Below, one piece after another: positions 9,607 through 64,000 of a stretch of 64,000 nt of DNA (position 1 is its first letter; the number at the start of each line of letters is the position of its first letter). Made by a program: the position numbers and the translations under genes. Below the pieces are notes generated by a model. That model did no database searches. It saw only the letters and a list, made by a program, of their open reading frames with translations, and was not told where the DNA came from. The stretch lies in the NCBI GenBank assembly GCA_947478865.1, contig CANJXF010000006.1, positions 28,750 through 92,749 of the forward strand, written 5' to 3'. This stretch comes from Verrucomicrobiales bacterium (GTDB lineage: Bacteria > Verrucomicrobiota > Verrucomicrobiia > Limisphaerales > CANJXF01).

Positions 9607-10391
9607 AGTTCTCCATCGTCACACCCAGCCTGAATCAGGGCGGATTCATCCGCGATTGCATCGAAAGCGTCCGCGCCCAGACCGGGGTCGATTGGGAACA
9701 CATCGTCATTGACGCCGGATCGACCGATGAAACGATTTCTATCGTGAAAGAATATCCGCACCTGAAATGGATTTCAGAGCCGGACAAAGGCATGAGCGAC
9801 GGCATCAATAAAGGATTTCTCAAGGCGCAAGGCGAATGGCTGATGTGGCTCAACGCGGATGATTACCTTGTTCCCGGCTCGCTCGCGAAAGTCGCTGAGT
9901 TCGCAAAAAAGAATGCCGACGCGGACGTGATTTACGGCGAATGTATTTTCGTCGATGAATCGAAAAAAGTCATTCGGCGCCGATGGGAACATGGCTTTGA
10001 TTTTTCGATCCTGCTCTTTTACGGCTGCTTTATTCCATCCACCTCGACATTCATTCAGCGGAAAGTGATTGCCGCCGGAGAATTGCTGAACATCGAATAC
10101 CGGGTCTGCATGGACTTCGAGCTTTACGTGCGCTTGTCCGAGCACGGTTATAAATTCAAGTTCCTTCCCGATGCGCTGGCTTGTTTCCGCTGGCATCCCA
10201 CCAACACGAGCACGACTCAATCGAAACGGCGTTATCAGGAACGACTTCGCGTGCAGCAGGAATACCTTCGCCGACATGGAAAAAACTGGATCGCTGGCGA
10301 AAAAACTATTTTTGCGCTGTGGCGTTTGATCACCATAAAGAGGCTGGTTCTCCGCTTAGTTTCCCGCTATTTTCGGCGGCAAAATGTTTAA
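9603..10391 (+). CDS. Glycosyltransferase family 2
   Basis: SIVTPSLNQ, IDAGSTD.T, SEPDKG, WLNADD (DxD) and MDFEL. Confidence 0.93.
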   Translation: MKFSIVTPSLNQGGFIRDCIESVRAQTGVDWEHIVIDAGSTDETISIVKEYPHLKWISEPDKGMSDGINKGFLKAQGEWLMWLNADDYLVPGSLAKVAEFAKKNADADVIYGECIFVDESKKVIRRRWEHGFDFSILLFYGCFIPSTSTFIQRKVIAAGELLNIEYRVCMDFELYVRLSEHGYKFKFLPDALACFRWHPTNTSTTQSKRRYQERLRVQQEYLRRHGKNWIAGEKTIFALWRLITIKRLVLRLVSRYFRRQNV

Positions 10392-11328
10392 GCTTCGCCA
10401 CATTTTTAAACCGGCCGATGCCCAACAGGAACGCGAATTCGAGCGCGCCAACGTAGAGAATAAGCGCGGTCGCTATCTTGAAACCAATCCCCTCGCCCGC
10501 TACGAGCGCGATCTGGTTTATCGGGAAAAAGTGGATCGGATCAAAGCAGGAATTGGCGAACCCAACGGACTTGTCCTGGACATTGGCGGCAACACCGCCG
10601 GCGAAGCCACGCTGCTGAAACAACTTGGTTACGACATCATCGTTGGAGACATCAACGAAACCGCGCTCGATATTTCCCGTGAACGCGTGGAAAAATTCGG
10701 TTTGAAAGCGCCGGGATACGTCGCACTTGACGTCCACCAATTGCCTTTCAAAGACCAATCCTTCAGCGCGGTCACCGTGATCGAAGCGCTGCATCATTTC
10801 GTCAATTACGACCAGGCGCTCAAAGAAATCCATCGCGTGCTCAAACCCGGCGGGAAGCTTTTCTCGCTCGAACCCTACGCGCTCAATCCGCTTCGGCGCG
10901 CATCGGAGGTTCGCGACCGTTTGCGCGCCACAATTGAGAAAAGTTTCTACATTTCACAACTCACGCGCCTCTGCCAGGACGCCGGGTTCGTCAACGTGAA
11001 TGTCGCATCCGTTCCTACGGGACGCTCCAGTTGGAAGCTGGAGGAAGTTCCGGCCTACCGGCGTCCGATTACGCGGCTTCACGCCTGGCTTTCCGTGAAT
11101 GCACCCTCGGTTTTCGGCACGCTGCGACTTGAAGCCAAAAAAGCCGGAACCATCGCTGAGAATGGCAAACCCGAGCTTGCCCAACTCTTTTGCAGCCCAA
11201 AAAATCGAAACGATTTGCGGCGCGACGCCGACAAAAAGCATTGGGTGGAAGCCAACGGCCAACACGCATTTCCCGAACTGAACGGCATCCCGGTTTTGAT
11301 CGCTGAAGATGCCATTGCATTGAAATAG
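10384..11328 (+). CDS. Class I SAM-dependent methyltransferase with C-terminal Trm112-like module
   Basis: VLDIGG, LPFKDQSF, ALHH, EI.RVLKPGG. C-terminus LFCSPKNRNDL...FPELNGIPVLI resembles Trm112/YcaR. Confidence 0.8.
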   Translation: MFKLRHIFKPADAQQEREFERANVENKRGRYLETNPLARYERDLVYREKVDRIKAGIGEPNGLVLDIGGNTAGEATLLKQLGYDIIVGDINETALDISRERVEKFGLKAPGYVALDVHQLPFKDQSFSAVTVIEALHHFVNYDQALKEIHRVLKPGGKLFSLEPYALNPLRRASEVRDRLRATIEKSFYISQLTRLCQDAGFVNVNVASVPTGRSSWKLEEVPAYRRPITRLHAWLSVNAPSVFGTLRLEAKKAGTIAENGKPELAQLFCSPKNRNDLRRDADKKHWVEANGQHAFPELNGIPVLIAEDAIALK

Positions 11329-11344
11329 CCGATTGCCTCCCGTC

Positions 11345-12682
11345 ATGGCTCAAGCCCAAAACATCGGCACGTTGGTCACGGCAATTTTTCAAACCTGGAA
11401 AACCGCAGGGATCGATTTTCTGGTGTTGCGGAACTATGAAACTCTCCCCGATTTCACGACCAACGATATCGACGTTCTCGTCGACAAAGCCCAACTCCCC
11501 CGCGCCGAGCAGTTGCTGATTTCCACGGCGGCAGCGCATCAATTCCGCCTTCACAACCGCGCGGAATATTCCACGCTCGCCCTTTATTTTTCCCATCCGG
11601 AAGACCTGAAGCAAATTCACTTCGACCTGTTCAGCAATTTGCAATGGCGCGGATTTGAATATCTCGACACAACTGATTTTCTCGCCGCAAAAGTCAATCG
11701 CGGCTCGTTTCCCATTCCATCGCCGATGCACGAGGCAGCCGCCAATCTGCTCGGGCTTTTCATTTACACCGGCCGAATTAAGGAGAGATACAAACCGTCG
11801 ATTTGCTCCGGTTTCCGTGCTGATGAGGAAGGTGCGATCCGTCTTTTGTCCAACACTTACGGCCCAAGCCTGGCCCGCTTTTTAGTAACCAATGCGGTTG
11901 GAGAATGCTGGCGCGTCATCGAAGGGAATTTCGCCGCCCTGCGCCGCGCATTGCTCTCCCGTCAATTTGGATTTCATTCGTGCAAAACCCTGCGCTCGCT
12001 CACGCAGAATTTTGTTCGAGTCCTCAAACGCTTTCTGCATCCACCGGGAGTAATGGTTGTCTTGCTCGGAGCGGATGGGAGTGGAAAATCCACCGTGGGG
12101 GCGGCAATTCTGGACAACCTGCAAAACACGTTCAGCCCGCTGAAAAACGTTTACCTCCACTGGAAACCTCGGCTGTTTTCCGCTGCGAAAGAAACCTCTG
12201 CACACACCAATCCCCACGGCCAGACGACGCGCGGGAAAATTGCCTCACTCGCTTATTTCGCCTTCCATTGGCTGGAATTTTTCTTTGGTGGATGGCGACA
12301 GCTTCGTCCGGTTCTTTTCCGCGGAGGAATTGTTCTCGTCGATCGTTACTATCTGGATTTGTTTGTCGATCAAAAGAGATACCGGTTGCAGGTGCCTCAA
12401 ATCATGATCCGCTTTGCCTATGTCTTCCTGAAAAAACCGGATCTCATTTTGATGCTGGATGCGCCCGCTGAAATTCTTCAAGCGCGAAAACAGGAAGTCT
12501 CGATTCAGGAAACCGCGCGCCAACAATTGGCGTATCGAACACTCGCTGCCAGCATGGAAAATTCCATTCTGCTCGATGCCGCCCAACCGGCCGAAGCCGT
12601 CGCACATCAAGCCACGAAAGCCATTTTGGAATTTCTCATCAAACGAACGCAAAAGCGCTTGGCCAAGGACACTCATGGCTAA
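11345..12682 (+). CDS. Fusion of a Pol-beta-like nucleotidyltransferase domain and a thymidylate-kinase-like P-loop domain
   Basis: N-terminal VLRNY..LP....NDIDVLV plus HFDL (NTase DxD..D). C-terminal GADGSGKST, VDRYY.D, KPDLILMLDA and ARKQE. Confidence 0.72.
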   Translation: MAQAQNIGTLVTAIFQTWKTAGIDFLVLRNYETLPDFTTNDIDVLVDKAQLPRAEQLLISTAAAHQFRLHNRAEYSTLALYFSHPEDLKQIHFDLFSNLQWRGFEYLDTTDFLAAKVNRGSFPIPSPMHEAAANLLGLFIYTGRIKERYKPSICSGFRADEEGAIRLLSNTYGPSLARFLVTNAVGECWRVIEGNFAALRRALLSRQFGFHSCKTLRSLTQNFVRVLKRFLHPPGVMVVLLGADGSGKSTVGAAILDNLQNTFSPLKNVYLHWKPRLFSAAKETSAHTNPHGQTTRGKIASLAYFAFHWLEFFFGGWRQLRPVLFRGGIVLVDRYYLDLFVDQKRYRLQVPQIMIRFAYVFLKKPDLILMLDAPAEILQARKQEVSIQETARQQLAYRTLAASMENSILLDAAQPAEAVAHQATKAILEFLIKRTQKRLAKDTHG

Positions 12683-50937: not shown

Positions 50938-53004
50938 TTATGGCGCGACCGCGCGAAAGAAACGCCTGGACAGATTCAGGTTGGTCGTGAATTGAAACGA
51001 CGCGTTCGATGTGGCGACATTCGTGGAAATGTTGATCCAGTTCGTCAGGTTCGTGGACGATTGAATTCGGTAGGTCCGCTGCGGCATCGCGGAAAACTGC
51101 AGGACAATGACCCGGTTGGAGGCGACTTGATTCGTCGACGAAAAGCCTAATGAAGAATTGATCGCGACCGGGTTTGCCGAAAAATTGATATTGCTCACAC
51201 TCAATCCGACTACTGGATTTTCCGCGTTCGTCCCCACTGTGACCGTCTGGTTCGTCGGGCTGAAACCGGCACCAACCCCCGTGGGCGTGACCACGAAATT
51301 CCCGGTGCCAAGACCAAAAATTGTATAATACCCGTTAGTCGCCGAGACCCCGGATTGTGTCCCCGCCTTCACCGTGATTCCCGCAACCCCATTGGTTCCT
51401 TCCGTGATCCGTCCGCTGATGCTGTAGGTGGGAATCAATTCAAAGGCGCCCGCATCGCAATTGGTCCCCTGCGGGCGGGGAATGCCGCGTTGGTCAAGGC
51501 CGCCGCAAATCCCGGGATCGCCCGTATCGACGGCTGGACTGTTCGTCAACAAGGCCATGGTCTGAGTCAACCCGCCGTTGCTCGCGATGGCGGCAAGCCG
51601 CAGGTCCAAGCTGTTGCGACTCTTGAACGTCGTAGTAAAATTGCAGCTGCTGTCCGAACAAATATTATAGCCGCCGTCGGTGACGCCGCCGGAACAACTC
51701 GGCCCGGAAACCCCCTTGGCCAAAATCGTATTTTGAAGATAAACGATGCCGCTGAGCCGATAGGTATTTCCGCCGAGCGCAGAGCCGGTAGAGCCATTAT
51801 TGTCCGAGAAATTTGGATTTGTCCCGCCGACTCCGCCCGTCGCGTTATTTGTGGCGAAGGTGCTGCTGACAATCGTGACGTTGTTGGAACTGTAAATCGC
51901 CCCGCCGTTGCCGCTTCCGCCGTTGCCGCCGATCAGGAAATTGCCGCTATAAACGTCACCACCTTTGCCGCCTTGCGACGCATTTTGATGGAACGTGCTG
52001 GTATCAATCGCCACCTCCCCAAGATTGTAAATGCCGCCACCGTGCCCCGCGCCGCCGCTGTCCCCGCTTTTATCAACGCCAGCGTGTTGTGAAATCCCGC
52101 CGACAGTCGTGTTCGTAAAGAAAGTTGAATTCGTAATCAGCACCGTTCCAAGGTTGTAAATCGCTCCGCCCAATGCACTCGACCCGCTGCCGCCCGAACC
52201 CGGCACGCCCGGAAACGATGCCGTGCCACCACTTCCGGCGGAACTGCCGTCTCCAGCGAACGCATGATTATTGACGACAGAACTGTTGAGAATCACAACG
52301 GTGCCGCTGTTGTAAATGGCCCCGCCGCGGGCCGCTGCGCCGTTGCCGCCGTTACCGCCGTTGCCGCCAAACAAGGTCGCATTTCCGCCATTGCCTCCCG
52401 TCCCACCATCGCCGCCGACCGCCGTGTTGCTGGAAATCGTGCAATTGACCAGCACGTTGGTTCCGCCCAGGTTATAAATCGCGCCACCAATTCCCGTCGT
52501 TCCAGCGGTGCCGTTGCCGCCGTCATTGCCCGTTGAGCCGTTCCTTCCGTTCACGCCGTTTGTGCCGCTGGCCTGGTTGCCGGAGAAAACGCAGTTGGTG
52601 AGAAACAGATTGCCGCCCGAATTATAGATTCCGCCGCCATTCGTACTCAGTCCATCGACAAGACTCAGATTTGCCATGCTCAAAGTGACGTTGCTGGCCA
52701 CGTTGAAAAGACGCACGGCGTTGTTGCCGCTGATCGTGATCGAAACGTTGGAGGCGTTAATAAAAACATCCGTGGCGACCTCAAGAACGCTCGTCAGCGT
52801 CAAACTGGAACTGCCATGAAAAGTGATTTCGCCTCCAGCAGCGAGCGCGTTCTGAAAAACGGTTTGAGTGAAGTTGGTGATGACCGAGGCCCTGGTTGCG
52901 GTCGGCATCGAAAGCATCAGGAGGACTGCCAGGAAACCAGCGCCAACCCGCCCACATATTTTGTTTAGAACTGATTTCAAGAGCTTTGTTTGATAGCAAA
53001 ACAC
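50938..53004 (-). CDS. Secreted Gly/Asn-rich beta-helix protein (GGAIYN repeats, choice-of-anchor Q domain, carboxypeptidase-regulatory-like domain, C-terminal FFR module)
   Basis: About 6 GG(A/G)IY(N/S) repeats with Gly-rich loops; NGG.T.T.AL...SPAVD.G...DQRG..RP....D.GAFE; YSISGRI; YRIQSSTNLTNW...FFRAVAP. Start uncertain. Confidence 0.82.
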   Translation of the reverse strand: MFCYQTKLLKSVLNKICGRVGAGFLAVLLMLSMPTATRASVITNFTQTVFQNALAAGGEITFHGSSSLTLTSVLEVATDVFINASNVSITISGNNAVRLFNVASNVTLSMANLSLVDGLSTNGGGIYNSGGNLFLTNCVFSGNQASGTNGVNGRNGSTGNDGGNGTAGTTGIGGAIYNLGGTNVLVNCTISSNTAVGGDGGTGGNGGNATLFGGNGGNGGNGAAARGGAIYNSGTVVILNSSVVNNHAFAGDGSSAGSGGTASFPGVPGSGGSGSSALGGAIYNLGTVLITNSTFFTNTTVGGISQHAGVDKSGDSGGAGHGGGIYNLGEVAIDTSTFHQNASQGGKGGDVYSGNFLIGGNGGSGNGGAIYSSNNVTIVSSTFATNNATGGVGGTNPNFSDNNGSTGSALGGNTYRLSGIVYLQNTILAKGVSGPSCSGGVTDGGYNICSDSSCNFTTTFKSRNSLDLRLAAIASNGGLTQTMALLTNSPAVDTGDPGICGGLDQRGIPRPQGTNCDAGAFELIPTYSISGRITEGTNGVAGITVKAGTQSGVSATNGYYTIFGLGTGNFVVTPTGVGAGFSPTNQTVTVGTNAENPVVGLSVSNINFSANPVAINSSLGFSSTNQVASNRVIVLQFSAMPQRTYRIQSSTNLTNWINISTNVATSNASFQFTTNLNLSRRFFRAVAP

Positions 53005-53081: not shown

Positions 53082-54305
53082 ATGAAACGGACAACTCTTG
53101 CCGCGTCGGTTCTGCTCGGAACCTGGGCTTTCTTTTCCATCGCAGCCGTTCAGGCCGCAGACTGGTATCGCTGACGCGGCCCGGACCTCAACGGCATTTC
53201 CACCGAAAAAAACTGGCAAGCCAAGTGGCCCGCCGAAGGCCCGAAACAACTTTGGAAAGCCAGCGTCGGAACCGGTTTTTCATCCGTGTCCGTCAGCCAA
53301 GGGCGCGTCTACACGATGGGCAATGAAAACAATCAGGACAGCGTCGTCTGCCTCGACGCAGGCTCCGGAAAACAAATCTGGAAACATACCTATGATTGTC
53401 CGCTCGATCCAAAATATTATGAAGGCGGACCAAGCGTCACGCCGACGGTCGATGGCGACCAGGTCTTCACGCTCAGCCGCAAAGGTGATTTGTTCTGTCT
53501 CGACGCGGCGACCGGCAAAGTGATTTGGTCAAAAAATATTGCAAAAGAAGTTGGCGCCGAGATTCCGACCTGGGGCCTCGCGGGCTCGCCGCTGGTGGAA
53601 AAGAATCTACTGATCCTTAATGTCGGGAGCGCCGGAACTGCGTTGGACAAAGCGACAGGGAAAGTCGTTTGGAGCAGCGGCAAAGAAGCCGGCGGTTACT
53701 CGACTCCAGTTGGGTGCGAGTTCAACGGCCAGCGCTGCGTCACACTTTTCGGAGCCAAAACAGTATTCGCCCTGAATGCGAGTAATGGAAAAAAAGTTTG
53801 GGAACACGACTGGAAAACCGAATACGACGTCAATGCGTCAGAGCCAATTATTGCCGGCGACAAGGTTTTTATTTCCTCCGGCTACAACCACGGTGGATCG
53901 CTTCTGCAAATCCAAGACGGCAAAGCCACCGTTCTCTGGGAAAACAAGAATATGCGCAATCAGTTCAACAGCAGCGTGCTGCTCGACGGTTTCCTCTATG
54001 GCTTTGATGGCAATACCGGACCGAAAGCTGATTTGAAGTGCGTGGAATTTGCCACCGGCAACGTAAAGTGGAATCAGGAAAAACTCGGCGCGGGCGCCTT
54101 GATGGCAGCTGACGGGAAACTGATTGTGCTGACGGACAAAGGCGAATTGATCATCGCGGAGGCTTCGCCCGCCGCCTTCAAACCCATCTCGCGCGCGCAG
54201 GTGACCGGTGGAAAAAACTGGACCGTCCCCGTCCTCTCCCACAGCAAAATCTATTGCCGCAACGCCAAAGGCGACCTGGTCTGTTTGGATTTGAAGAAGG
54301 AATAA
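53082..54305 (+). pseudogene. PQQ-type (BamB-like) beta-propeller gene interrupted by an in-frame TGA
   Basis: ATG 53082 gives a signal peptide, then ADWYR*RGPDLNG. TGA at 53172-53174 replaces the Trp of the DWxxWRG motif. The frame continues into the 53286..54305 ORF with CLDAxxGKxIW repeats. Confidence 0.75.
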
Positions 54306-54330
54306 TGTTCAGAACTTCACGTCCGATAAA

Positions 54331-54828
54331 TCAGGTTTTCTTGGAAATTGCGCCAGCCGCGCCACTACAACTGTCGGCCACGTTGGCAAGGTCTTCGAGG
54401 AAACTTTCCTGCTTTTCCAGCGGCAGCGCGGATAGGATTTCCGTTTGGAGCGCCACCGCGATTTCCCTCACCTTTTCATATTTGCGCTGGCCTTCCGGCT
54501 TGAGGCTAATCCGGTAGGCACGCCGGTCGGTTTCGTGAGCCTTGCGTTCGATCAAGCCACTTTTCTCCATTCGCTCCACGAGCGACGCGATGGTGTTCGG
54601 GTCGCTCGCCATGTGTTTGGTCAATTGACTTTGAGTGAGTCCAGTTTGGCCGTTTTCCAGGATCGTTCGCATGGCGGTGAACTGGTCTGGCGTCACTCCA
54701 GTATGGGCGATTCTCCGTCGAAAGGCCTGGTTCAAACCGTACCAGGCCCGGCGCAGCAGGATCGGCAAACGCTTACGCTCCGGCGCGTCCACCGGCAATG
54801 GTTTGGATTTAATCTCTGATTTTCGCAC
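54331..54828 (-). CDS. MarR family transcriptional regulator
   Basis: G.T..QF, TQ..L......D.NT...LV.RME..GLI.R and DRR...I.L...G. Start uncertain (GTG 54828 or 54843). Divergent from the 55033 operon. Confidence 0.9.
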   Translation of the reverse strand: MRKSEIKSKPLPVDAPERKRLPILLRRAWYGLNQAFRRRIAHTGVTPDQFTAMRTILENGQTGLTQSQLTKHMASDPNTIASLVERMEKSGLIERKAHETDRRAYRISLKPEGQRKYEKVREIAVALQTEILSALPLEKQESFLEDLANVADSCSGAAGAISKKT

Positions 54829-55032
54829 AGTTTTTCGGACCACTTCGGTTGGCCTTGTGAATAACAATTTCCGCTCAAGCCAAAATAGTCTTTGAATATT
54901 TGGACCGAAAGGCAAATCATACGTGTAAGTAGCAAATGCATTGCAACCCATGGGCGCTTGTAGAATAGTGCCCTAGCGTTTGGAAGATATAAGTTGTCCA
55001 CGCTTTTCTGGAGCGGGCAACAAAAGACAATT

Positions 55033-57363
55033 ATGAAAACTAAAGGTTTGTTGATCGCGGCGCCGTTGGCTCTCTTCTTCTCCGTCACTTCATTGATCAG
55101 CGCCCCAGCGCACGGCTGGCTCAGTTGGCGCGGTCCGCAACAGAACGGGATGTCGCTGGAAAAGAATCTCCCCGACAAAATCGATGTCAATAAACCGCTG
55201 TGGGTCGCCGATTTCCCCGGCCAATCGACGCCGGTCATCGCCAACGGGAAAGTTTACATCATGGGTTATCTCGGGAGCGGCCCGGATTTGCAGGAAGGGG
55301 TCGCCTGCTTCGATGCCGAGACCGGCAAAAAACTCTGGGAAAAGCGCTACAACGATTTCCTGAGCGACACGATTTACCTGCGCTATGCGACCTCCAGTCC
55401 GGCTGTCGATCCGGAGACAGGCAATGTTTACATGCAAGGCACGCAGGGAATCCTGGCCACCCTCGACAGCAACGGAAAACTGCTCTGGCAGCACTCGATG
55501 ATGGAAGAATTTGGCCGGCTCACCTTCCCGAACAGCCGCACTGCGTCGCCGATCATCGATGGAGATCTGGTCATCACGCGCGGGATCACCGCCAACTGGG
55601 GCGCGCAAGGACCGGCGGGCGACCGCTTCTATGCCTTCGACAAAAAGACCGGCCAACTCGTCTGGTCCTCCACGCCCGGCGGACCGCCCAAAGACAATTC
55701 GTTTTCGCATCCCTACTTGACCTTTCTCGGCGGTAAACGTGTTTTCTTCTCCGCCACCGGCGATGGTAGCGTCGTTTGCGCGAACGCCCGGACCGGCGAC
55801 CCGCTCTGGCGCATCCCGCTCTTCAAGGCCGGGATCAACGCCACCGTATTGGTTCATAACGACGACAAGATCATCGCCATCTACGGAACACCCTATGAAC
55901 CCGGCCAGATGGTCGCATTGAAAATTCCCCACGTCACGCCGACGAATGCGGCCAGCGCGCCGGTCGTGGTGGACCGCGCATCCGCGCAGATCTGGGCAAA
56001 CGACCTTTCGACTTCGGCGAGTTCGCCGATTCTGGTGGGTGACAAGATTTATGTCGTGACGGAAAAAGGCGACCTCAACGCGGTGGATGCGAACACCGGA
56101 AAAATTCTCTGGCACATGAAACTGGGCATTGAGCAGCGCAACGCCGCATTGACCTTTGCCGATGGCAAACTTTACGTGCCGATGCTGGACGATCCCGCCA
56201 CGAAAACCGAGGGTGGCGAAGCGGGCAGCACCGGAGCGTTTTACATCATTCAACCGACCGACACGGAGGGAAAAATTTTATCGCACGTCGCGCTGGACGG
56301 ACGCTGCTTCGGAACCCCGACGGCTTACAACGGAAAAATTTACGTGCAGACCACGCGGCATCTGTATGCGTTTGGAACCAAAGGGAACAACAGCGGGTTG
56401 CCCTCAGAACCAGTCGCCCCAAAATGGCCCGTCGCGGGACCCGCCCAACAGCTTCAAATCATTCCATCCGAAGTCTTGATGCGCCCCTCCCAGACCGAGT
56501 CGTTTCGGGTCCGTTCGCTCGACGCCAATGGATTTCTGGTCCAGGAAATCAAGGACGTGAAGTCGGTCAAATGGGCTTCGTTCATTCCTCCCACGGCGAA
56601 GGTGAAATCGACGATGAACGCCGCCTTTGACGCGAACGGCGAACTTGTCGCGGCGACCAACTCCACTCCGTCCGCCGGCGCATTCGAAGCGACCGTCGGC
56701 AACCTGAAAGGCTACATTCGCGGACGCGTTTTGCCCTACCTCCCGATCAAGCAGGATTTCGAGTGGGCGAACCTTTCTGAGACCACGACCAACGAAGTCG
56801 AGGAACCGACCAAGTTCTCCTACCCGCCGCTGCCTTGGATTGGCGCGCGATTCAAATTTGAAATCCGCGACAAGGATGGAACCAAAGCGTTAACCAAAAC
56901 GATCGACAACACATTTTTCCAACGCGGAACGGTTTTCCTGGGCGAACCAAATACGAAGAATTACACGATCGAAGCCGACGTGATGAGCGAGGGCAACAAA
57001 CGCAAAATGTCGGATGTCGGCATCATCTGCCAGCGTTACCTGATCGTGATGAAAGGCAACGAGCAGAAGCTCGAAATCAATTCCAACCTGGAACGATTGC
57101 GGGTCCCCGCCGCCGACGAGGCACCGAATTTTCCGTGGTCAGCCAACGTCTGGTATCACTTGAAAGCGCGCGTGGACACAGCCAAAGATGGTTCCGGCGT
57201 GGTTCGAGCGAAGGCGTGGAAACGCGGCGAACCGGAGCCGGAAAAGTGGTCAGCCGAAGTGGCGCACAAGACCGCGCACCAGAATGGTTCGCCCGGCCTG
57301 TTTGGATTTTCCCCGCAGCGAATGCGCGTGTTTATCGACAATGTTACGGTAACTCCAAATTAA
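55033..57363 (+). CDS. Large secreted PQQ-type beta-propeller protein with C-terminal Ig-like and lectin/ConA-like domains
   Basis: Signal peptide; WLSWRGP..NG; repeats FDAETGK.LW, FDK.TG.LVW and VDANTG.ILW; C-terminal YTIEADV..WY.LK..V beta-sandwich. Confidence 0.85.
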   Translation: MKTKGLLIAAPLALFFSVTSLISAPAHGWLSWRGPQQNGMSLEKNLPDKIDVNKPLWVADFPGQSTPVIANGKVYIMGYLGSGPDLQEGVACFDAETGKKLWEKRYNDFLSDTIYLRYATSSPAVDPETGNVYMQGTQGILATLDSNGKLLWQHSMMEEFGRLTFPNSRTASPIIDGDLVITRGITANWGAQGPAGDRFYAFDKKTGQLVWSSTPGGPPKDNSFSHPYLTFLGGKRVFFSATGDGSVVCANARTGDPLWRIPLFKAGINATVLVHNDDKIIAIYGTPYEPGQMVALKIPHVTPTNAASAPVVVDRASAQIWANDLSTSASSPILVGDKIYVVTEKGDLNAVDANTGKILWHMKLGIEQRNAALTFADGKLYVPMLDDPATKTEGGEAGSTGAFYIIQPTDTEGKILSHVALDGRCFGTPTAYNGKIYVQTTRHLYAFGTKGNNSGLPSEPVAPKWPVAGPAQQLQIIPSEVLMRPSQTESFRVRSLDANGFLVQEIKDVKSVKWASFIPPTAKVKSTMNAAFDANGELVAATNSTPSAGAFEATVGNLKGYIRGRVLPYLPIKQDFEWANLSETTTNEVEEPTKFSYPPLPWIGARFKFEIRDKDGTKALTKTIDNTFFQRGTVFLGEPNTKNYTIEADVMSEGNKRKMSDVGIICQRYLIVMKGNEQKLEINSNLERLRVPAADEAPNFPWSANVWYHLKARVDTAKDGSGVVRAKAWKRGEPEPEKWSAEVAHKTAHQNGSPGLFGFSPQRMRVFIDNVTVTPN

Positions 57364-57388
57364 TCTCTTTATTTTCTAAAAAAAATTT

Positions 57389-58978
57389 ATGAAAAGAACT
57401 TCGTTGATTTTAACCGCACTCGTTGCTGCGCCGATTGTTGGTTCGGCCGTGGATTGGCCGCAATGGGGCGGCAAGCAGGAGCGCAACATGTATTCGCCCA
57501 CCAAAGGTCTGCCCAGCCAGTTTGATCCGGGAAAACCCAAATCCGGCACTGAAGAAATCGATCTGGCCACAACCAAGAACGTGAAGTGGGCCACCAAACT
57601 CGGTTCGCAAAGCTACGGCAACGTCACGGTCGCTGGCGGCAAGATTTTCATCGGCACCAACAACGAGAATCCGCGTGACCCAAAGCACCAGGGCGACCGC
57701 AGTATCCTCATGTGCTTCGACGAAAAGACCGGTGAATTTCTCTGGCAACTGGTTGTGCCGAAGCTTGCTTCCGGCAAAGTCAACGACTGGGAAAACCTCG
57801 GACTGCTCTCCTCCCCGACAGTCGAGGGAAATCGCGTTTACATCGTGACCAGCCGTTGCGAGGTCATGTGTCTCGACGTCGATGGAATGAAAAACGGCAA
57901 CGACGGCCCATTCAAAGAAGAAGGCCAATACGTCGTCGGCCCAGGCAAACCGAAAGTGGAAAGCGGCCCGAAGGACGCGGACATCATCTGGAAATACGAC
58001 ATGATGGATGAGCTGGGCGTGTTCCCGCACAACGCGTCGAATTGCTCGGTGCTGATCGTCGATGACATCGCTTATGCCTGCACCTCGAACGGACAGGACT
58101 GGACGCACTCCAATATTCCTTCGCCCAATTCGCCCAGCTTCATCGCCCTGAACAAAAAGACCGGCGAATTTCTTGGCGAAGACAACGCCAAGATCGGTCC
58201 ACGCATTTTCCATGGCCAATGGAGTTCCCCTTCGACAGGAAAGATCAACGGCAAACAGCTCGTCTTCTTCGGCGGCGGCGACGGATTCTGTTATGCGTTC
58301 GACGCGAAGCCAGTCAAGGAAGGCGATTCGAGCTATTTGAAAAAAGTTTGGTGGGTCGATTGCAACCCGCCGGAGTACAAGAAAAACAAAGAGGGCGAAC
58401 CGATCAAATATCCCGCGGCGGAAGGCCCGAGCGAAGTCAATGCGACTCCGGTGTTTTATAAAGATCGTGTTTATGTCGCAACGGGACAGGACCCGGAACA
58501 CGGCGAAGGCGTCGGCCGTTTGCTCTGCCTGGATGCAACCAAGACCGGCGACATCACCAAGACCGGAATCATTTGGGATTACAAAAAAATTCATCGAACG
58601 ATCTCGACGGTCTCGATTGATCCCGAAACCGGCCTGCTGTTTGTTGGCGATTTTTCAGGATTCCTCCACTGTCTCGACGCGGAGACCGGAAACGTTTACT
58701 GGACCCACGACATGAAAGCGCACATGTGGGGCTCCACATTGGTGGCGGATGGAAAAGTCTACGCCGGCGACGAGGACGGCGATTTCGTCGTGCTCGCCGC
58801 CACGAAGGAGAAGAAAATCCTCAGCGAAACGAACATGGGCGCGCCGGTTTATTCCACCCCGGTGGTGGCGAATGGAAATATCTACATCGCCAGCAACACG
58901 CATCTCTATGCGCTGGGAAATTCGGCAAAGCCGGTCAATACCGACGAAGCACCGAAAATCGAATTGAAGAAACCTTAA
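57389..58978 (+). CDS. Secreted PQQ-type beta-propeller protein
   Basis: Signal peptide; DWPQWGG...RN, CFDEKTG.FLW, CLDA.TG...W and STPVVANG.IY. Confidence 0.88.
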   Translation: MKRTSLILTALVAAPIVGSAVDWPQWGGKQERNMYSPTKGLPSQFDPGKPKSGTEEIDLATTKNVKWATKLGSQSYGNVTVAGGKIFIGTNNENPRDPKHQGDRSILMCFDEKTGEFLWQLVVPKLASGKVNDWENLGLLSSPTVEGNRVYIVTSRCEVMCLDVDGMKNGNDGPFKEEGQYVVGPGKPKVESGPKDADIIWKYDMMDELGVFPHNASNCSVLIVDDIAYACTSNGQDWTHSNIPSPNSPSFIALNKKTGEFLGEDNAKIGPRIFHGQWSSPSTGKINGKQLVFFGGGDGFCYAFDAKPVKEGDSSYLKKVWWVDCNPPEYKKNKEGEPIKYPAAEGPSEVNATPVFYKDRVYVATGQDPEHGEGVGRLLCLDATKTGDITKTGIIWDYKKIHRTISTVSIDPETGLLFVGDFSGFLHCLDAETGNVYWTHDMKAHMWGSTLVADGKVYAGDEDGDFVVLAATKEKKILSETNMGAPVYSTPVVANGNIYIASNTHLYALGNSAKPVNTDEAPKIELKKP

Positions 58979-59000
58979 AGCGGCTCATCAAAATAAATCC

Positions 59001-60707
59001 ATGCCCTCATCCTCTCGCCTGACGCTCACGCAGTGGCTGATTTGTGCCATCGCGGCAATCGGCTTCCTGTTCGACACCTACGAACTACTGATGACGCCGC
59101 TCGTTGGGGTTCCCGCAATTGCTGAACTGCTTCAGGTTCCGCCGAACAATCCGCTCGTCACCGAATGGATGGGGAAAATGCTTTGGATGAGCGCGTTGTG
59201 CGGGGGCGTTTTTGGTTTACTCGGGGGCTGGTTGATCGATCGGTTCGGTCGCAAACGCATCATGGCGGCGAGTATTTTTGTCTATTCACTTTCGCCAGTC
59301 GCGGCGGCGTTGAGCACGACGTTGCCCATGTTTATTTTCTTCCGTTGCACCACGTTCATCGGCGTTTGCGTGGAGTTCGTCGCGGCGATCACCTGGCTTG
59401 CGGAATTATTCCCCGATCCGCGCCGCAAGAAAATCGTTCTCGGAACCACCCAGGCATTCGCCTCGCTCGGCGGCATTCTCGTCACCCTGGTGAGCGCGTG
59501 GATTGTGGCACACGCCAACTCGCTCCCGGCTCTGCATCTGCCTGAAATCTTCAACGCGCACTCGACCTGGCGCTACACGCTTTTCACTGGATTGCTTCCG
59601 GCACTTCCAATTGCGTTGCTCTTGCCCTTTGTGCCGGAATCGCAAGTCTGGCGCGAGAAACGTGACGCAGGAACTCTGAAGCGCCCCAGTTTTGGCGAAT
59701 TGTTTTCGCCCGCGCTGCGTCGCACCACCATTGTCACCGCGTTGCTCTCCGCCTGCGCCTATGCTGCGGCCTTTGGCGCGTTGCAGTTAACACCGTTGCG
59801 GATCGCGCCCGGCCTGCCCGAACTGGCCGACCAACGCAAAGCGCTGAAACCGTTGCAGGATGAAGCGAAGAATCTGAATCAGCAACTGACTGCGGCGATG
59901 CCCGCTTTCGAGCAAGCGACGAAAGAAATTCCCGGACTGGCTGAAGTCGCCGCGCAAAGAGCCAAAACCCGGATCGCGATGCGCACGCCGAAAAAGATTG
60001 TCGACGACCCCGCAGCGTCTGACCCGGCGAAAGCGGCTGCGAAAACGCAGCTTGCGTCGCTATCGGCTCGCATCAGCCAGCTCGACACCAATCTGACGCA
60101 ACTTACTGTGGAAAAACCGGACGCAAAAAAGGCGATCATCGATCGCGAGAAAATTTTGAAACAACTCGGTGACAACCGAGAATTTCAGGAGCCGCTCGAT
60201 CGCAAAATCAAAGAGGTCGGGAATAAAATGCAAGGCTTCCAGGAAACCGGCGGGCTGATCGGGCGAATTCTGCTGGCTATCTTGTTGCTCATCGTCGTTT
60301 CCCATCGCACGCTGCTGCGCATTTTTGTTGTGCCCGGCCTGCTGATGTTGCCGGTGACCTATTGGATGCTCTATCACACCTCCACGCCGGCGATGCAGTG
60401 GGGAATCTTCTTCTGCGGCCTGCTCGTCGTCGCGCAATTCAGTTATTTTGGCGAATATCTGCCCAAAGTTTTCCCGCTTCATTTGCGCGGCACCGGCGGA
60501 AGTTTTGCAACTAACGTAGGCGGCCGAATGATTGGAACGTCCGCCGCATTCCTGACCACGAATCTGCTCGCCCCGAAAATGAATGCGGCCCTGACGTTCG
60601 ACCAGGTCGCGATGGCCGCAGGAATCGTGGGAACAAGCGTTTTCGTCCTCGCGCTGATTTTAAGTTTCTTTTTACCTGAACCCAAAGTTGAACCTTCAGA
60701 GCAGTAA
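59001..60707 (+). CDS. MFS transporter with about 140-aa soluble helical insertion
   Basis: GFLFDTYE, motif A G.L.DRFGRK, G...EF, AELFP, PES..W and YLP.VFP..LRGTG. A hydrophilic insert follows TM7. Confidence 0.9.
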   Translation: MPSSSRLTLTQWLICAIAAIGFLFDTYELLMTPLVGVPAIAELLQVPPNNPLVTEWMGKMLWMSALCGGVFGLLGGWLIDRFGRKRIMAASIFVYSLSPVAAALSTTLPMFIFFRCTTFIGVCVEFVAAITWLAELFPDPRRKKIVLGTTQAFASLGGILVTLVSAWIVAHANSLPALHLPEIFNAHSTWRYTLFTGLLPALPIALLLPFVPESQVWREKRDAGTLKRPSFGELFSPALRRTTIVTALLSACAYAAAFGALQLTPLRIAPGLPELADQRKALKPLQDEAKNLNQQLTAAMPAFEQATKEIPGLAEVAAQRAKTRIAMRTPKKIVDDPAASDPAKAAAKTQLASLSARISQLDTNLTQLTVEKPDAKKAIIDREKILKQLGDNREFQEPLDRKIKEVGNKMQGFQETGGLIGRILLAILLLIVVSHRTLLRIFVVPGLLMLPVTYWMLYHTSTPAMQWGIFFCGLLVVAQFSYFGEYLPKVFPLHLRGTGGSFATNVGGRMIGTSAAFLTTNLLAPKMNAALTFDQVAMAAGIVGTSVFVLALILSFFLPEPKVEPSEQ

Positions 60708-60713
60708 ATTAAC

Positions 60714-61781
60714 ATGATCCAACTCACTCCCGAGCAAGCCCAGCAACAACTCGAAACGCATCTTAGCGAAATCATCCAATGGCATTTTTCGCCGGAAACC
60801 GGCTGCCCGTTCTGGCTTGATTGGGCGAAGAAGAATTTCGATCCGCGCCAAGAAATCAAATCGTTCGCGGACATGTCGAAATTCCCCCATTTCCAGGATG
60901 AATGGCTGCGCGATCTGCAACCGGAAGTCTGGGTCCCCGCGCAGTTCAAAGGAAAACCGTTCAGCATTTTCGAAACGGGCGGCACCACCGGCATGCCCAA
61001 GCAGCGCATTGGCTGGAATGATTTTCGCGTGGATTATTCTGAGTTCAGCGAAAAAATTTCCGACGAACATTTTCCGCGCAATCACTACTGGCTGATGATG
61101 GGGCCAACCGGCCCGCGCCGACTCCGCCTCGCCATTGAACATCTCGCCAATGTGCGCGGCAGCTCGTGCTACTTCATCGACCTCGATCCGCGTTGGGTGA
61201 AAAAACTGATCAGCGGCAAACAGTTTGATCAAGCCCGCGCCTACATGGATCACGTGGTCGATCAAGCCGTGACAATTCTGAAAAACCGCAAAGTTTCCGG
61301 CCTGTTCACCACGCCGAAACTGCTCGAAGCGCTCTCCGAGAAAATAAATATCTGGGACGCTGGCATCCGCGGCGTCTTCTGCGGCGGCACCACGATGGCT
61401 CCGCAATATGTCCGATTCATCGTCGAAGAAGTTTTGGAAGGGCGCATTGGTTTTTATCCGACCTACGGCAACACGCTGATGGGACTCGCGGCGAGCGTTC
61501 CGCTGAAACCCGAGGACAATTTCTCCATCACCTACTACGCCCCGCAACCGCGCGCCGTCTTGCGAGTCGTCGATCCAAACAACACGACTCAATTGAAAGC
61601 TTACGGCGAATGGGGCCGCGTCGAACTCACGACATTGACGAAAGAATTTTTCATGCCGCGTTTTCTGGAGCGCGACGAAGCGATCCGCCGCACGCCGCGC
61701 GCCCCCTACGCCTGGGACGGCGTGGCCGAAGTGCGTCCATTCGGCGCGATGGAAAAGAATATTGTCGAAGGCGTTTACTGA
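60714..61781 (+). CDS. EhpF/LuxE-like truncated ANL-superfamily adenylating enzyme
   Basis: WHFSPETG.PFW, A3 loop ETGGTTG.PK, A5 YGNT, A7-like ERD and C-terminal EGVY. Only 355 aa, with no small C-terminal ANL domain. Confidence 0.75.
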   Translation: MIQLTPEQAQQQLETHLSEIIQWHFSPETGCPFWLDWAKKNFDPRQEIKSFADMSKFPHFQDEWLRDLQPEVWVPAQFKGKPFSIFETGGTTGMPKQRIGWNDFRVDYSEFSEKISDEHFPRNHYWLMMGPTGPRRLRLAIEHLANVRGSSCYFIDLDPRWVKKLISGKQFDQARAYMDHVVDQAVTILKNRKVSGLFTTPKLLEALSEKINIWDAGIRGVFCGGTTMAPQYVRFIVEEVLEGRIGFYPTYGNTLMGLAASVPLKPEDNFSITYYAPQPRAVLRVVDPNNTTQLKAYGEWGRVELTTLTKEFFMPRFLERDEAIRRTPRAPYAWDGVAEVRPFGAMEKNIVEGVY

Positions 61782-61827
61782 TTTTTCGCGGAACAACCGT
61801 TTATTTAAAGCGGGATACGCGAACGAC

Positions 61828-63117
61828 CTAAGGCCGGCGCAACCGGTAGAATTCCGATCCGTTTTGGCGATTCTTTATCGTCACGAATTCGTCTCCTGAT
61901 GCAATGACGCCGTTGGTCTGGGCGATCCAGACTTCGCCAGGGAAAAGAGCCGTGGTGCTTTCGAAGACAAAGGCGCTTGCCGAAACCGGCCATGAGAACA
62001 TGAGTTGGTTTCCCGAAACTGAGAAGCGCAGAGTCGGCGGCACAATGCGCTCAGTTCTAACCGTGTTGTTACCGAGGTCTGCGATATAGAGATAACCGGC
62101 CCCGTCCTTCGCCAGGCCACCGGGAAAAGAAAAACGCGCACTGCTGCCGTTTCCATCCGCGTTTCCGGCCGTCCCCGGCAAACCTGCGACCGTGGTCACC
62201 ACCCAATTCGTTCCGATGGCAGAAATTTTTCGGATGGTTTGATTGCCTGAATCAGAAACAAAAATGTTTCCCGCGTTGTCGGCCACGATTCCCTGCGGTT
62301 GAAAAAATCGAGATTCTTTGTTCGTTCCGTCCACATTTCCCCAAAGACCAGGTGACCCGGCAATGGTGCTGACCGAGCCACTAGCCGTAATCCTTCGAAT
62401 GGTGTGGTTCGAAAAATCGGCGACGTAAAGATTCGTTGCGCTATCCACGGCGATTCCTGTGGGCGAATTGAATCGTGCTTTGGTCACGGAACCATCCAGC
62501 GAACCAGGGTTTCCGGCCAAGCCCGCCCGCGTGGTGACGGCTCCGCCCATCGAAATTTTGCGAATGGTGTGGTTCCATGTGTCCGCCACAAAAACATTGC
62601 CAGCCCTGTCCACGGTCAATGCTTGTGGCTGGAAAAACTGCGCATTCGTTCCCTGACCGTCGAAGCTGTTCGCATAACCGGCAGAACCGGCCAGGGTGCT
62701 CACCAAGCCTTCCGAGGTGATTTTTCGAATCATTGCATTACCCGTGTCGGCGACGTAAATCGATCCGGCGCTGTCCACGGCAATTCCTTGCGGAGCAAAA
62801 AAGCGCGCGCTCGTTCCCATCCCGTTGGTGCTGCCGGTAATTCCGGGAGAGCCTGCAAATGTCGTCACAATTCCGTTCGGAGTAATCTTTCGAATCGTAC
62901 TGTTCTCGGTGTCAGCGACATAAATATTCCCGGTGCTGTCGGCCGCAATGCTGTTCGGATGGCTAAATCGCGCGCTGCTGCTCACTCCATCCGCGATGCC
63001 GATGACGTCGTGGCCGGCGAACGTGTTGATGGATACAGTTTGGGCAGACAGGAGTGCGACTGACATCAGGAAAGCGCCCGCGCTCGCAAAGATGGAAAAT
63101 GACATTCGGGTTCGCAT
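61828..63117 (-). CDS. Secreted NHL-repeat protein with C-terminal FYR module
   Basis: Six F..P.GIA.D..GN.YVAD..N..IRKI repeats. Signal peptide from ATG 63117, 1 bp after the upstream stop. Ends LMFSWP...FYRLRRP. Confidence 0.9.
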   Translation of the reverse strand: MRTRMSFSIFASAGAFLMSVALLSAQTVSINTFAGHDVIGIADGVSSSARFSHPNSIAADSTGNIYVADTENSTIRKITPNGIVTTFAGSPGITGSTNGMGTSARFFAPQGIAVDSAGSIYVADTGNAMIRKITSEGLVSTLAGSAGYANSFDGQGTNAQFFQPQALTVDRAGNVFVADTWNHTIRKISMGGAVTTRAGLAGNPGSLDGSVTKARFNSPTGIAVDSATNLYVADFSNHTIRRITASGSVSTIAGSPGLWGNVDGTNKESRFFQPQGIVADNAGNIFVSDSGNQTIRKISAIGTNWVVTTVAGLPGTAGNADGNGSSARFSFPGGLAKDGAGYLYIADLGNNTVRTERIVPPTLRFSVSGNQLMFSWPVSASAFVFESTTALFPGEVWIAQTNGVIASGDEFVTIKNRQNGSEFYRLRRP

Positions 63118-63118
63118 T

Positions 63119-64000
63119 TCAGTTCCAGTTTGGACGATAGACCGTTCCGGTGGAATCGGATCCGCCGCGTCCGGCCACAGAAGCCTGAATCGTGTAAATC
63201 GAGCCGTTTCGGCGCGCGGGTAATCGCAAAATGTAGGTCGGCTTGACAGGTGTAACGCCGGTGAATCCGGCATGGGTGTCGCGGTCAATTTCAACTCCAT
63301 TCTCTAACAATGCGACCCAGGCGATATCCAATCCGTTCGCCCCAGATTGCCAGCAAAAGCTAAGGTCAATTTCACCGGCGGCGGTGACGCTGGAAGTGAG
63401 GTTCCAACTCAGCGTGTTGTAGTTCGTTGAAACCTGAGCCGGTATCCACGACGCAATTGCCGGCGGAGTTGCGCTCGGATTGTAATTCACCCCCATTTGC
63501 GTGAGCCGTTGCTTGTGAACCACGAGACGGTTGGTGAAGTCGGAATAATTTTTCAGCGCAGCAGGAGTCCAGTTGCCTTCGGCCAATGCGCACAAGCGCG
63601 GGAAAACTCTAAACTGCATGTTTAAGAGAGATGGGATCCACTCAGACCATGAGTTACCCTGTGACCCGAGAATAAAATTTGTGTATCCGGCTGCCAAACC
63701 CGCTGGAATCGGCTCGAAACTATAGGCCGTGTTCAACGAGACAAATCCCGATTGCGCCGGTGGTTCGTTGGACCAGATGACGCCAGCGCCATTGCCGCTG
63801 GTGCTGCCGGTTTCCCATTTGTTGATGTAACACGAAGCGGACGGCGACATGACCGCGTATTGGCCGTTGGTTGCAGTGAACGTTGCTTTGGTGGCGAGCC
63901 AATCCATCAGCACAGCATTGGTGACCAGGCCGCCATTCATGATTTCGCTCCACCCAATCATCGTGCGTCCCTGGCTTTTGATCCAATTGGCGATTTGCTG
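63119..64000 (-). CDS. Beta-N-acetylhexosaminidase (GH20), 3' part only, start is beyond the window
   Basis: GRTMIGWSEI, VMSP...CY, AYSFEP, ILG.QGN.WSEWI and FPRL.ALAE..W, followed by a beta-sandwich domain. Confidence 0.85.
   Translation of the reverse strand, partial: QQIANWIKSQGRTMIGWSEIMNGGLVTNAVLMDWLATKATFTATNGQYAVMSPSASCYINKWETGSTSGNGAGVIWSNEPPAQSGFVSLNTAYSFEPIPAGLAAGYTNFILGSQGNSWSEWIPSLLNMQFRVFPRLCALAEGNWTPAALKNYSDFTNRLVVHKQRLTQMGVNYNPSATPPAIASWIPAQVSTNYNTLSWNLTSSVTAAGEIDLSFCWQSGANGLDIAWVALLENGVEIDRDTHAGFTGVTPVKPTYILRLPARRNGSIYTIQASVAGRGGSDSTGTVYRPNWN

Follow-up and report, generated by a model that had tools for sequence, protein, structure and literature searches.

A conserved marR-divergent operon of Verrucomicrobia encodes secreted propellers and an EhpF-family enzyme, most likely one half of a two-protein carboxylic acid reductase

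The subject of this work is a 64,000-nucleotide stretch of a Verrucomicrobiales genome (contig CANJXF010000006.1, positions 28,750 to 92,749; termed here the window), and in particular an operon of four forward-strand genes within it that diverges from a gene for a MarR-family regulator. The longest open reading frame (ORF) of marR occupies positions 54331–54951 of the reverse strand, and its product scored 45.4 bits with PF01047 against a cut-off of 24.6. The first two genes of the operon encode secreted propellers of the PQQ_2/BamB-like type, propeller 1 (54994–57363; 789 amino acids, aa) and propeller 2 (57389–58978; 529 aa), both recognized by Pfam PQQ_2. These are followed by a carrier of the major facilitator superfamily (MFS; 59001–60707; 568 aa; MFS_1 72 bits, cut-off 33.4) and by an ANL enzyme (60714–61781; 355 aa) that was assigned to the EhpF family from its match in the Protein Data Bank (PDB) and its fold. 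A six-frame ORF list reproduced the layout described in an initial annotation made from the DNA letters, namely four co-directional genes with gaps of 25, 22 and 6 bp and a divergent marR. The 12-nt element TACGTGTAAGTA that this annotation had pointed out between the divergent genes is present at 54920–54931 (no strand assigned), 102 nt 5' of the propeller 1 ATG, and just 3' of it lies a pair of hexamers that may constitute a promoter, TTGCAA ... TAGAAT (54941–54966, forward strand). The operon is widely kept in Verrucomicrobia, and it couples secreted propellers and a probable importer with one of the two proteins of an enzyme that most likely converts an aromatic acid to an aldehyde.

The ANL protein scored 26.6 bits with the Pfam AMP-binding model, which is under the cut-off of 29.9. 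When the PDB was searched with phmmer at E <= 10, the sole matches were two EhpF entries (E 7e-42), with residues 17–355 aligned to residues 24–366, and the protein is 32% identical to the EhpF encoded on a plasmid of Pantoea agglomerans. An AlphaFold2 model was obtained with a pLDDT of 91.9, and Foldseek placed EhpF chains first (E 1e-31 to 3e-29, TM 0.83–0.85). PaaK-type ligases formed a second tier (E ~1e-17, TMt 0.55–0.61, 16–20% identity), and the second-tier matches also included the aryl-acid adenylases ClxA, NatL2 and AjiA1. Within a 38-sequence alignment, the motifs GGTTGMPK (89–96), YGNT (251–254) and EGVY (352–355) were each invariant or at least 90% conserved, and E319-R320-D321, containing the Asp of motif A7, was conserved as well. 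The protein stops at 355 aa without the ANL C-terminal subdomain, and its last residues, EGVY, align with the C-terminal end of EhpF. Both sequence and fold show it to be a true EhpF-family truncated adenylating enzyme; the motifs, the length, the EGVY end and the EhpF-type architecture proposed in the initial annotation were all confirmed. A full PaaK-type ligase, named there beforehand as the competing best match, was rejected: such ligases have ~430 aa, PaaK (TIGR02155) was not among the NCBIfam matches, and Foldseek ranked the PaaK structures as a distant second, at 16–17% identity.

A library clustered at 50% contained 238 clusters homologous to the ANL protein at E <= 1e-30. Two EhpF-like fusion proteins were observed, P0175 of Streptomyces (824 aa), which carries a class-III aminotransferase, and P0236 (725 aa), which carries a Zn-dependent alcohol dehydrogenase; since both types of fusion partner act on aldehydes, aldehyde chemistry is supported. 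Plasmid-borne homologues are labelled "phenazine biosynthesis protein" or "arylcarboxylate reductase" by annotation, and Streptomyces homologues of 33–35% identity carry the NCBI name "arylcarboxylate reductase". The ANL protein is most likely the activating half of a two-protein carboxylate reductase.

The initial annotation had stated that no reductase was present, which proved to be an effect of the window edge. An EhpG-like protein of the aldehyde dehydrogenase (ALDH) family (478 aa) is encoded on the same contig, 3.6 kb downstream of ANL and outside the window, whose edge is 1.3 kb away (G000:C6:94089–95525, equivalent to L115:5090–6526; G000 denotes the present genome). The reductase had appeared to be missing because its gene lies just past that edge, behind two inserted genes of opposite strand, which according to Pfam encode an NHL-repeat protein (61828–63300, reverse strand) and a GH20 hexosaminidase (63119 to past the window end, reverse strand). 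The ALDH-like protein is 26% identical to Pantoea EhpG over 387 residues (E 2e-35); the best solved ALDH was matched at only 5e-13. The catalytic Cys293 is kept and the general-base Glu is replaced by His257, both Cys293 and His257 being invariant in the family alignment, and EhpG likewise lacks the general-base Glu.

Relatives place the ALDH gene directly after the ANL gene, as in locus L002, where the gap is 3 bp. In G008, a genome of the same genus, an NHL gene follows ehpF (68% match to the NHL gene in the window) and the ALDH gene is located ~4.2 kb downstream on the same contig. The Chthoniobacterales locus L071 has an ALDH-family gene, whose product is 77% identical to that of the present genome, and a gene for an Fe-alcohol dehydrogenase (Fe-ADH) after ANL. 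The same L071 cluster (8522–9952 and 11087–11857) has an FAD-linked oxidase gene before ANL, a sulfotransferase gene between ANL and ALDH, and a GT4 glycosyltransferase gene last.

Structure prediction of the ANL-ALDH pair gave a complex score of 0.75 in three runs, compared with 0.00 for the best control; a mark of 0.75 was reached by 58 of 80 solved complexes and by 2 of 110 mismatched pairs. Both partners were modelled with a pLDDT of 91 or more, and 58% or more of the contacts were common to the runs. The predicted interface brings ANL residues 205–239 and 269–270 together with ALDH residues 18–20 and 39–46; on the side of the ALDH-like protein, the N-terminal residues Ser18, Leu19 and Gly42 do not vary in the alignment, and conservation of at least 90% was found for several more. 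The prediction supports binding between the ANL enzyme and its ALDH-like neighbour.

To examine the neighbourhoods of ANL homologues, 98 non-redundant loci were used, comprising 20 loci of order-level relatives (picked from 31 relatives with a match, mostly those on longer contigs) and the best 80 of 542 confirmed matches, a set biased toward high ANL identity, minus 2 duplicates; denominators are the loci with enough flank. Propeller 2 was located upstream of ANL in 61 of 76 loci and propeller 1 in 54 of 68, and a divergent marR was detected in 31 of the 64 loci that had at least 8 kb of upstream sequence. The unit of marR, two propellers, a transporter slot (MFS, DUF3311+SSS or nothing) and ANL is syntenic across verrucomicrobial orders, as the reading of the initial annotation required for the genes of the operon, and the arrangement is more than chance. 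The ALDH/LuxC-like partner that it had suggested seeking in homologue neighbourhoods was found there: an ALDH gene is present within 2.5 kb downstream of ANL in 30 of 82 loci. An Fe-ADH gene occurs within 4 kb downstream in 19 of 58.

At the level of whole genomes, the ANL gene was found in 32 of 41 order-level genomes (G000 included) and the ALDH gene in 34 of 41 at E <= 1e-40. All 32 ANL-positive genomes have the ALDH gene, and it was not found in seven of the nine ANL-negative ones. The two exceptions are a 76%-complete genome and a genome with a propeller 2 orthologue at a contig end. One of the 41 genomes, G009, is unpublished and is nowhere the sole basis of a claim. Of 301 high-quality genomes sampled evenly across the phylum, again counting G000, only 6 had a match; hence, the system is clade-restricted.

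Across the order, homologues are 72–95% identical to the ANL protein of the window. Among the genomes searched, the five most distant with an ANL match were compared for ANL, RecA and EF-Tu, with identities of 72, 76 and 85% in G018, 72, 80 and 81% in G039, 75, 75 and 74% in G010, 77, 84 and 82% in G022, and 77, 83 and 89% in G030 (EF-Tu partial). ANL is conserved close to the level of RecA in these five genomes (72–77% against 75–84%). Recent horizontal transfer as the cause of the high ANL identity was rejected on account of the faster divergence of the propellers in the same loci; in L105 and L107 the propellers are 46–52% identical and the ANL proteins 82–84%. Pedosphaera parvula, a cultured carrier of the system, has an ANL protein of 86% identity.

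The best NCBIfam matches of the MarR protein were weak, at 44 bits for HpaR and 42 bits for BilQ. As a palindrome, TACGTGTAAGTA is also weak, with 8 of 12 positions self-complementary, and a repeat search did not report it. The element is invariant in four same-genus intergenic regions with diverged flanks and occurs exactly in 16 of 117 loci; those that were checked have it between marR and propeller 1. When up to two mismatches were allowed, 43 of the 65 regions preceding propeller 1 contained it, usually 50–150 nt from the start; our own calculation gave a chance expectation of ~0.02 per region. The family has the core TACGTrTArGTA with AT-rich, partly palindromic flanks (consensus AAT-n-A TACGTrTArGTA TTATTT, then TTGCAa and TAGAAT), and TTGCAA and TAGAAT both stand in the column consensus built from 40 unique operator regions. 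A sigma-70 and terminator scan of positions 54200–62000 gave nothing above shuffles, and the TTGCAA/TAGAAT pair was not called. When the operator was compared with detected marR in 55 non-redundant loci, both were present in 30 and both absent in 13, with 9 and 3 discordant. Judged from its conservation across loci, the MarR element of the initial annotation is functional-looking, and TACGTGTAAGTA is a conserved putative MarR operator far from chance. The operator lies inside the longest marR ORF, so that the start of marR is probably internal, at a GTG or TTG near residue 29–37.

A degenerate operator pattern had exactly two sites in this 4.4-Mb genome, 57–102 nt before operon starts. The second of these precedes by 57 nt an operon on contig C56 that encodes a secreted propeller (408 aa), a HemN-like radical SAM protein, a 204-aa protein and an ALDH7-type dehydrogenase. 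When coordinates were compared over the 41 genomes, 19 operator hits were on the contig that carries the propeller 2 orthologue. The radical SAM gene and a flavoprotein gene were each detected in 31 of the 41 genomes; in 17 of the 31 that have the radical SAM gene, an exact operator occurs on the same strand within 3.5 kb upstream of it. The operator pattern had zero hits in seven ANL-negative genomes, and neither the radical SAM gene nor the flavoprotein gene was found in these same seven. In most relatives the radical SAM gene is followed by the flavoprotein gene, at a spacing that would accommodate the 204-aa gene, and in Chthoniobacterales the genes of the second operon are directly downstream of ANL-ALDH-FeADH, in one cluster. 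The flavoprotein (contig C76) and Fe-ADH genes are unlinked in the present genome. The last gene of the C56 operon (L121:4099–5655, reverse strand) encodes an L-piperideine-6-carboxylate dehydrogenase of the ALDH7 type (806 bits, cut-off 730); most relatives have the halogenase-like flavoprotein gene in its place.

The 204-aa protein had no sequence match in Pfam, NCBIfam or the PDB. Its model (pLDDT 85.9) was closest in fold to AF1396/DUF98 (E 2e-8, TMt 0.77–0.79), followed by UTRA domains and then by the Escherichia coli chorismate lyase UbiC (E ~1e-4), and the Atlas placed the protein with Chor_lyase/Rv2949c-like clusters (0.94–0.98). The predicted structure is that of a chorismate-lyase fold. 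The flavoprotein carries GAGPSG and WFWHIP sequences, and its best family match was the halogenase CmlS, well under the cut-off; the WxWxIP motif is a hallmark of flavin-dependent halogenases.

Both propellers of the operon exceeded the PQQ_2 cut-off of 27.6 bits in Pfam, with 117 bits for propeller 1 and 68.5 bits for propeller 2. Identity as PQQ-dependent dehydrogenases was considered and rejected, as the quinoprotein dehydrogenase model TIGR03075 of NCBIfam gave only 60 and 32 bits against a cut-off of 480, and only the general PQQ_2/BamB-like repeat model was passed. The N-termini of both proteins resemble signal peptides when judged by eye, without a predictor. Propeller 1 consists of an 8-blade PQQ_2/BamB-like domain and a C-terminal extension of ~320 aa, which had zero Pfam matches even at E <= 10 and for which the Atlas offered, as a lead only, a resemblance to Ig-like and Laminin-G/DUF1080-like domains (score 0.89). 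The true start of propeller 1 is likely the ATG at 55033, which fits the Atlas entry for this protein beginning at residue 14. The propellers also gave weak matches to the lambda-carrageenase propeller family. Our guess is that the secreted propellers bind or oxidise the same compound in the periplasm.

Adjoining marR on its other side is a further gene for a secreted propeller of PQQ_2 type (propeller 0; 53082–54305, forward strand; PQQ_2 126.5 bits). It has a signal-peptide-like start and a single in-frame TGA at 53172–53174, after which the frame is open for 376 codons; the TGA is at the conserved aromatic position of a DWxx(W/F)RG motif, and orthologues are present at the equivalent place in L085 and L095. 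The gene may be a pseudogene, contain a sequencing error or be read through. Several propeller 2 paralogues in relatives also have single internal stops. Farther along, the reverse strand at 50938–53004 encodes a secreted 688-aa protein with many Gly/Asn-rich "GGAIYN" repeats, which we take to resemble repeats of the polymorphic-membrane-protein type.

A salvage of pyrroloquinoline quinone (PQQ) was likewise rejected as an explanation: PqqC was not found in the genome, though no control genome matched the PqqC model and this absence is therefore unvalidated, PqqE was found only below the cut-off, and nothing ties PQQ to a cytoplasmic reductase. Beyond the ALDH gene, at L115:7876–10008 (G000:C6:96875–99007; reverse strand), there is a gene for a PQQ-dependent quinohemoprotein alcohol dehydrogenase (657.7 bits with the PQQ model) with a cytochrome c domain. 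The organism may depend on external PQQ.

The MFS carrier of the initial annotation is present in this operon and is not a fixed member of it. On this point and on the missing reductase the initial annotation went astray; otherwise it was for the most part right. Over 70 loci, the slot between propeller 2 and ANL was empty in 36, held an MFS gene in 20 and an SSS gene in 11 (DUF3311+SSS), and had other content in 3. All five of the SSS-slot ORFs that were scanned matched Pfam SSF, and a DUF3311 ORF precedes SSS in both of the two that were checked. Two unrelated carrier families in one slot point to a transport step, and since SSS carriers are importers, the slot argues for uptake. The best NCBIfam match of the present MFS protein was to the aromatic acid/H+ symporter family (80 bits, far under the cut-off of 418); sialate/H+ symporters were matched as well. 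The protein is probably an acid importer, to judge from these matches and the content of the slot. By eye, its residues ~270–420 form a long, charged, helix-rich central insert, and related MFS proteins have ~490–510 aa (e.g., in L041, L043, L051 and L054).

On the whole, we find it fairly probable that these genes belong to a MarR-controlled regulon containing an ATP- and NAD(P)H-dependent two-protein carboxylic acid reductase of the EhpF/EhpG (GriC/GriD) kind, with an aryl acid as substrate. This reading is based on homology, fold, synteny, co-occurrence, operator conservation and the predicted ANL-ALDH interface; we infer from it the reaction catalysed, the class of acid, which way transport runs and the binding of MarR. 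A carboxylic acid would reach the cytoplasm by way of the MFS carrier (DUF3311+SSS elsewhere), or the chorismate-lyase-fold protein encoded in the second operon would form it there out of chorismate, or both. The 355-aa ANL enzyme would adenylate it, and the acyl group would pass to Cys293 of the Glu-less ALDH-like partner, from which hydride transfer would release the aldehyde. The conserved Fe-ADH may carry the aldehyde on to the alcohol. MarR would bind the TACGTrTArGTA operator before both operons and would presumably be released by the acid. Our best guess for the substrate is an acid of the 4-hydroxybenzoate type, on the combined grounds of the 204-aa fold, the flavoprotein, the HpaR/PcaK-like matches and the substrates of EhpF and GriC, none of which is strong alone.

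Several observations weigh against the reductase regulon proposed here. The operator pattern gave 49 matches over the 41 genomes against 36 for a reversed-pattern control, and because this count is only modestly above the control, the argument for a regulon rests on the location of the sites and not on their number. No operator was found before the ALDH, Fe-ADH or flavoprotein genes in the present genome, so that their membership in the regulon rests on synteny elsewhere and on co-occurrence. An ALDH gene is absent from the 2.5 kb downstream of ANL in 52 of 82 loci, and six ANL-positive order-level genomes have only an unlinked ALDH paralogue of ~45% identity. The transporter slot is empty in 36 of 70 loci. 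For the halogenase, the MFS and MarR, the family matches fall far short of curated cut-offs, and the chorismate-lyase fold, which in the 204-aa protein comes without a sequence-level match, also occurs in UTRA domains, with which GntR regulators bind ligands. Part of the complex score could come from the predictor having learned a related complex that has been solved. Lastly, activity or expression of family members is known solely from antibiotic pathways.

With the same enzyme core, the substrate could be a non-aryl acid (e.g., fatty, sugar or amino-acid-derived) that the propellers, as lyases or hydrolases of a polymer, would free in the periplasm and that would then be imported and reduced. 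The lambda-carrageenase matches of the propellers would fit such a role, as would the resemblance of the propeller 1 tail to lectin or DUF1080-type domains (a lead only), the sialate/H+ symporter matches of the MFS protein and the L-piperideine-6-carboxylate dehydrogenase at the end of the C56 operon. We nevertheless regard it as unlikely: the family members discussed here for which a substrate has been assigned or proposed use aryl acids (for GriC, according to the available portion of PMC10179220), ClxA and NatL2 among the nearest second-tier folds are aryl-acid adenylases, and the co-regulated operon holds the chorismate-lyase-fold protein, which in relatives is followed by the halogenase-like flavoprotein. 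As regards EhpF, we take its substrate to be an aryl acid, phenazine dicarboxylate.

A more far-reaching form of the aryl-acid reductase, which we hold to be speculative and improbable, is that the regulon as a whole constitutes a redox cycle, in which one small aromatic compound is made, exported, re-oxidised and re-imported between cytoplasm and periplasm. ATP and NAD(P)H would be spent in the cytoplasm on reducing a possibly halogenated hydroxybenzoate to the aldehyde or alcohol; outside, the quinoprotein-like propellers would use or re-oxidise the compound, the MFS or SSS carrier would return the acid, and MarR would sense it. White-rot fungi possess a chloro-anisyl alcohol cycle, of which such a regulon would be a bacterial counterpart, and it would supply a ligand for a large family of "empty" propellers in the Planctomycetes-Verrucomicrobia-Chlamydiae (PVC) group.

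We also hold improbable a role of the ANL enzyme without the ALDH-like protein, in which adenylation would serve ester or amide formation or protein acylation and the ALDH role would be unrelated. In its favour, 3.6 kb and two genes of opposite strand separate the pair here, no operator precedes the ALDH gene, and in some genomes (e.g., L020) Fe-ADH comes directly after ANL with no ALDH between. Against this stand the co-occurrence of the two genes in all 32 ANL-positive genomes of the 41, their adjacency in 30 of 82 loci, the homology of both proteins to the EhpF/EhpG pair and the predicted interface (0.75 against 0.00 for controls). For protein acylation, which the initial annotation had put forward, no support was found. 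That the enzyme is EhpF in the strict sense, modifying phenazine-1,6-dicarboxylate as in Pantoea, has a negligible likelihood even though EhpF is its closest solved relative, given an identity of only 32%, a gene context entirely unlike the ehp cluster, and PhzA/B (PF03284) not being found in the whole 97%-complete genome, which bears out the phenazine-core absence first noted for the window, the same model having found its positive control on the Pantoea ehp plasmid (E 1.9e-75).

Literature searches, which did not reach supplementary files, turned up no paper describing the cluster, in agreement with the suggestion of the initial annotation that the pathway could be undescribed. To our knowledge, carboxylic acid reductases that consist of two proteins and do without a carrier have been found only in a few pathways for antibiotics and pigments. 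In the system proposed here, a recognisable operator for MarR ties the enzyme pair to propellers, to importers that can replace one another, and to a set of chorismate-lyase-fold, radical SAM and halogenase-like proteins. PVC bacteria have many orphan propeller families, one of which would thereby gain several handles: a defined operator, a two-operon regulon, a short list of candidate acids and a cultured carrier. The ANL-ALDH pair is also of interest as a biocatalyst.

Among known systems, the logic is all that is shared with the LuxE/LuxC fatty acid reductase, in which an acyl-AMP is formed, the acyl group is transferred to a Cys of an ALDH-superfamily reductase and the aldehyde is released. 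The likeness to LuxE drawn in the initial annotation does not extend to the proteins themselves: no LuxE/LuxC Pfam match was obtained for the ANL enzyme at E <= 0.01 or for the ALDH-like protein at E <= 0.001 (no genome-wide lux search was made), and no LuxE chain was among the listed fold matches.

BaaA/BaaB of Planctomycetales strain 10988, another PVC bacterium, are an adjacent chorismate lyase-like protein and a halogenase-like flavoprotein (a flavin-dependent brominase) proposed, in the accessible text of the source, to provide a halogenated 4-hydroxybenzoate on the way to 3,5-dibromo-p-anisic acid (bioRxiv 10.1101/723874). The order of a chorismate-lyase-fold gene and then a halogenase-like gene in relatives of the present organism is similar, the comparison being one of descriptions and not of sequences. 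Unlike the present system, that cluster is described without mention of a reductase, propellers or MarR in the same accessible text (bioRxiv 10.1101/723874), and the flavoprotein gene is unlinked here, on C76. A further comparable pair is GriC and GriD of Streptomyces griseus from the grixazone pathway, an AMP-binding protein and an ALDH-like reductase that, as given in the portion of the source available, convert an aryl acid, 3-amino-4-hydroxybenzoate, to its aldehyde with no carrier domain (PMC10179220). Their kinship to the present pair is drawn from that description rather than from the GriC/GriD sequences, and theirs is a pigment pathway, not a regulon with periplasmic proteins.

The closest parallel is EhpF/EhpG from the D-alanylgriseoluteic acid pathway of P. 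agglomerans (structures 3HGU, 3HGV and 3L2K). In both systems a truncated ANL protein of ~355–370 aa, which ends in EGVY and has no C-terminal subdomain of the usual kind, is paired with a divergent member of the ALDH family in which the catalytic Cys is present and the general-base Glu is not. The two systems differ in that the identities are 32% and 26%, no PhzA/B was found in the present genome, and the pair is split by an insertion here; moreover, the setting is a putative MarR regulon with secreted propellers and importers, as opposed to an antibiotic cluster. What is new here is the setting: a probable two-protein carboxylate reductase, of a kind already known, is found in a conserved context that is both regulatory and periplasmic.

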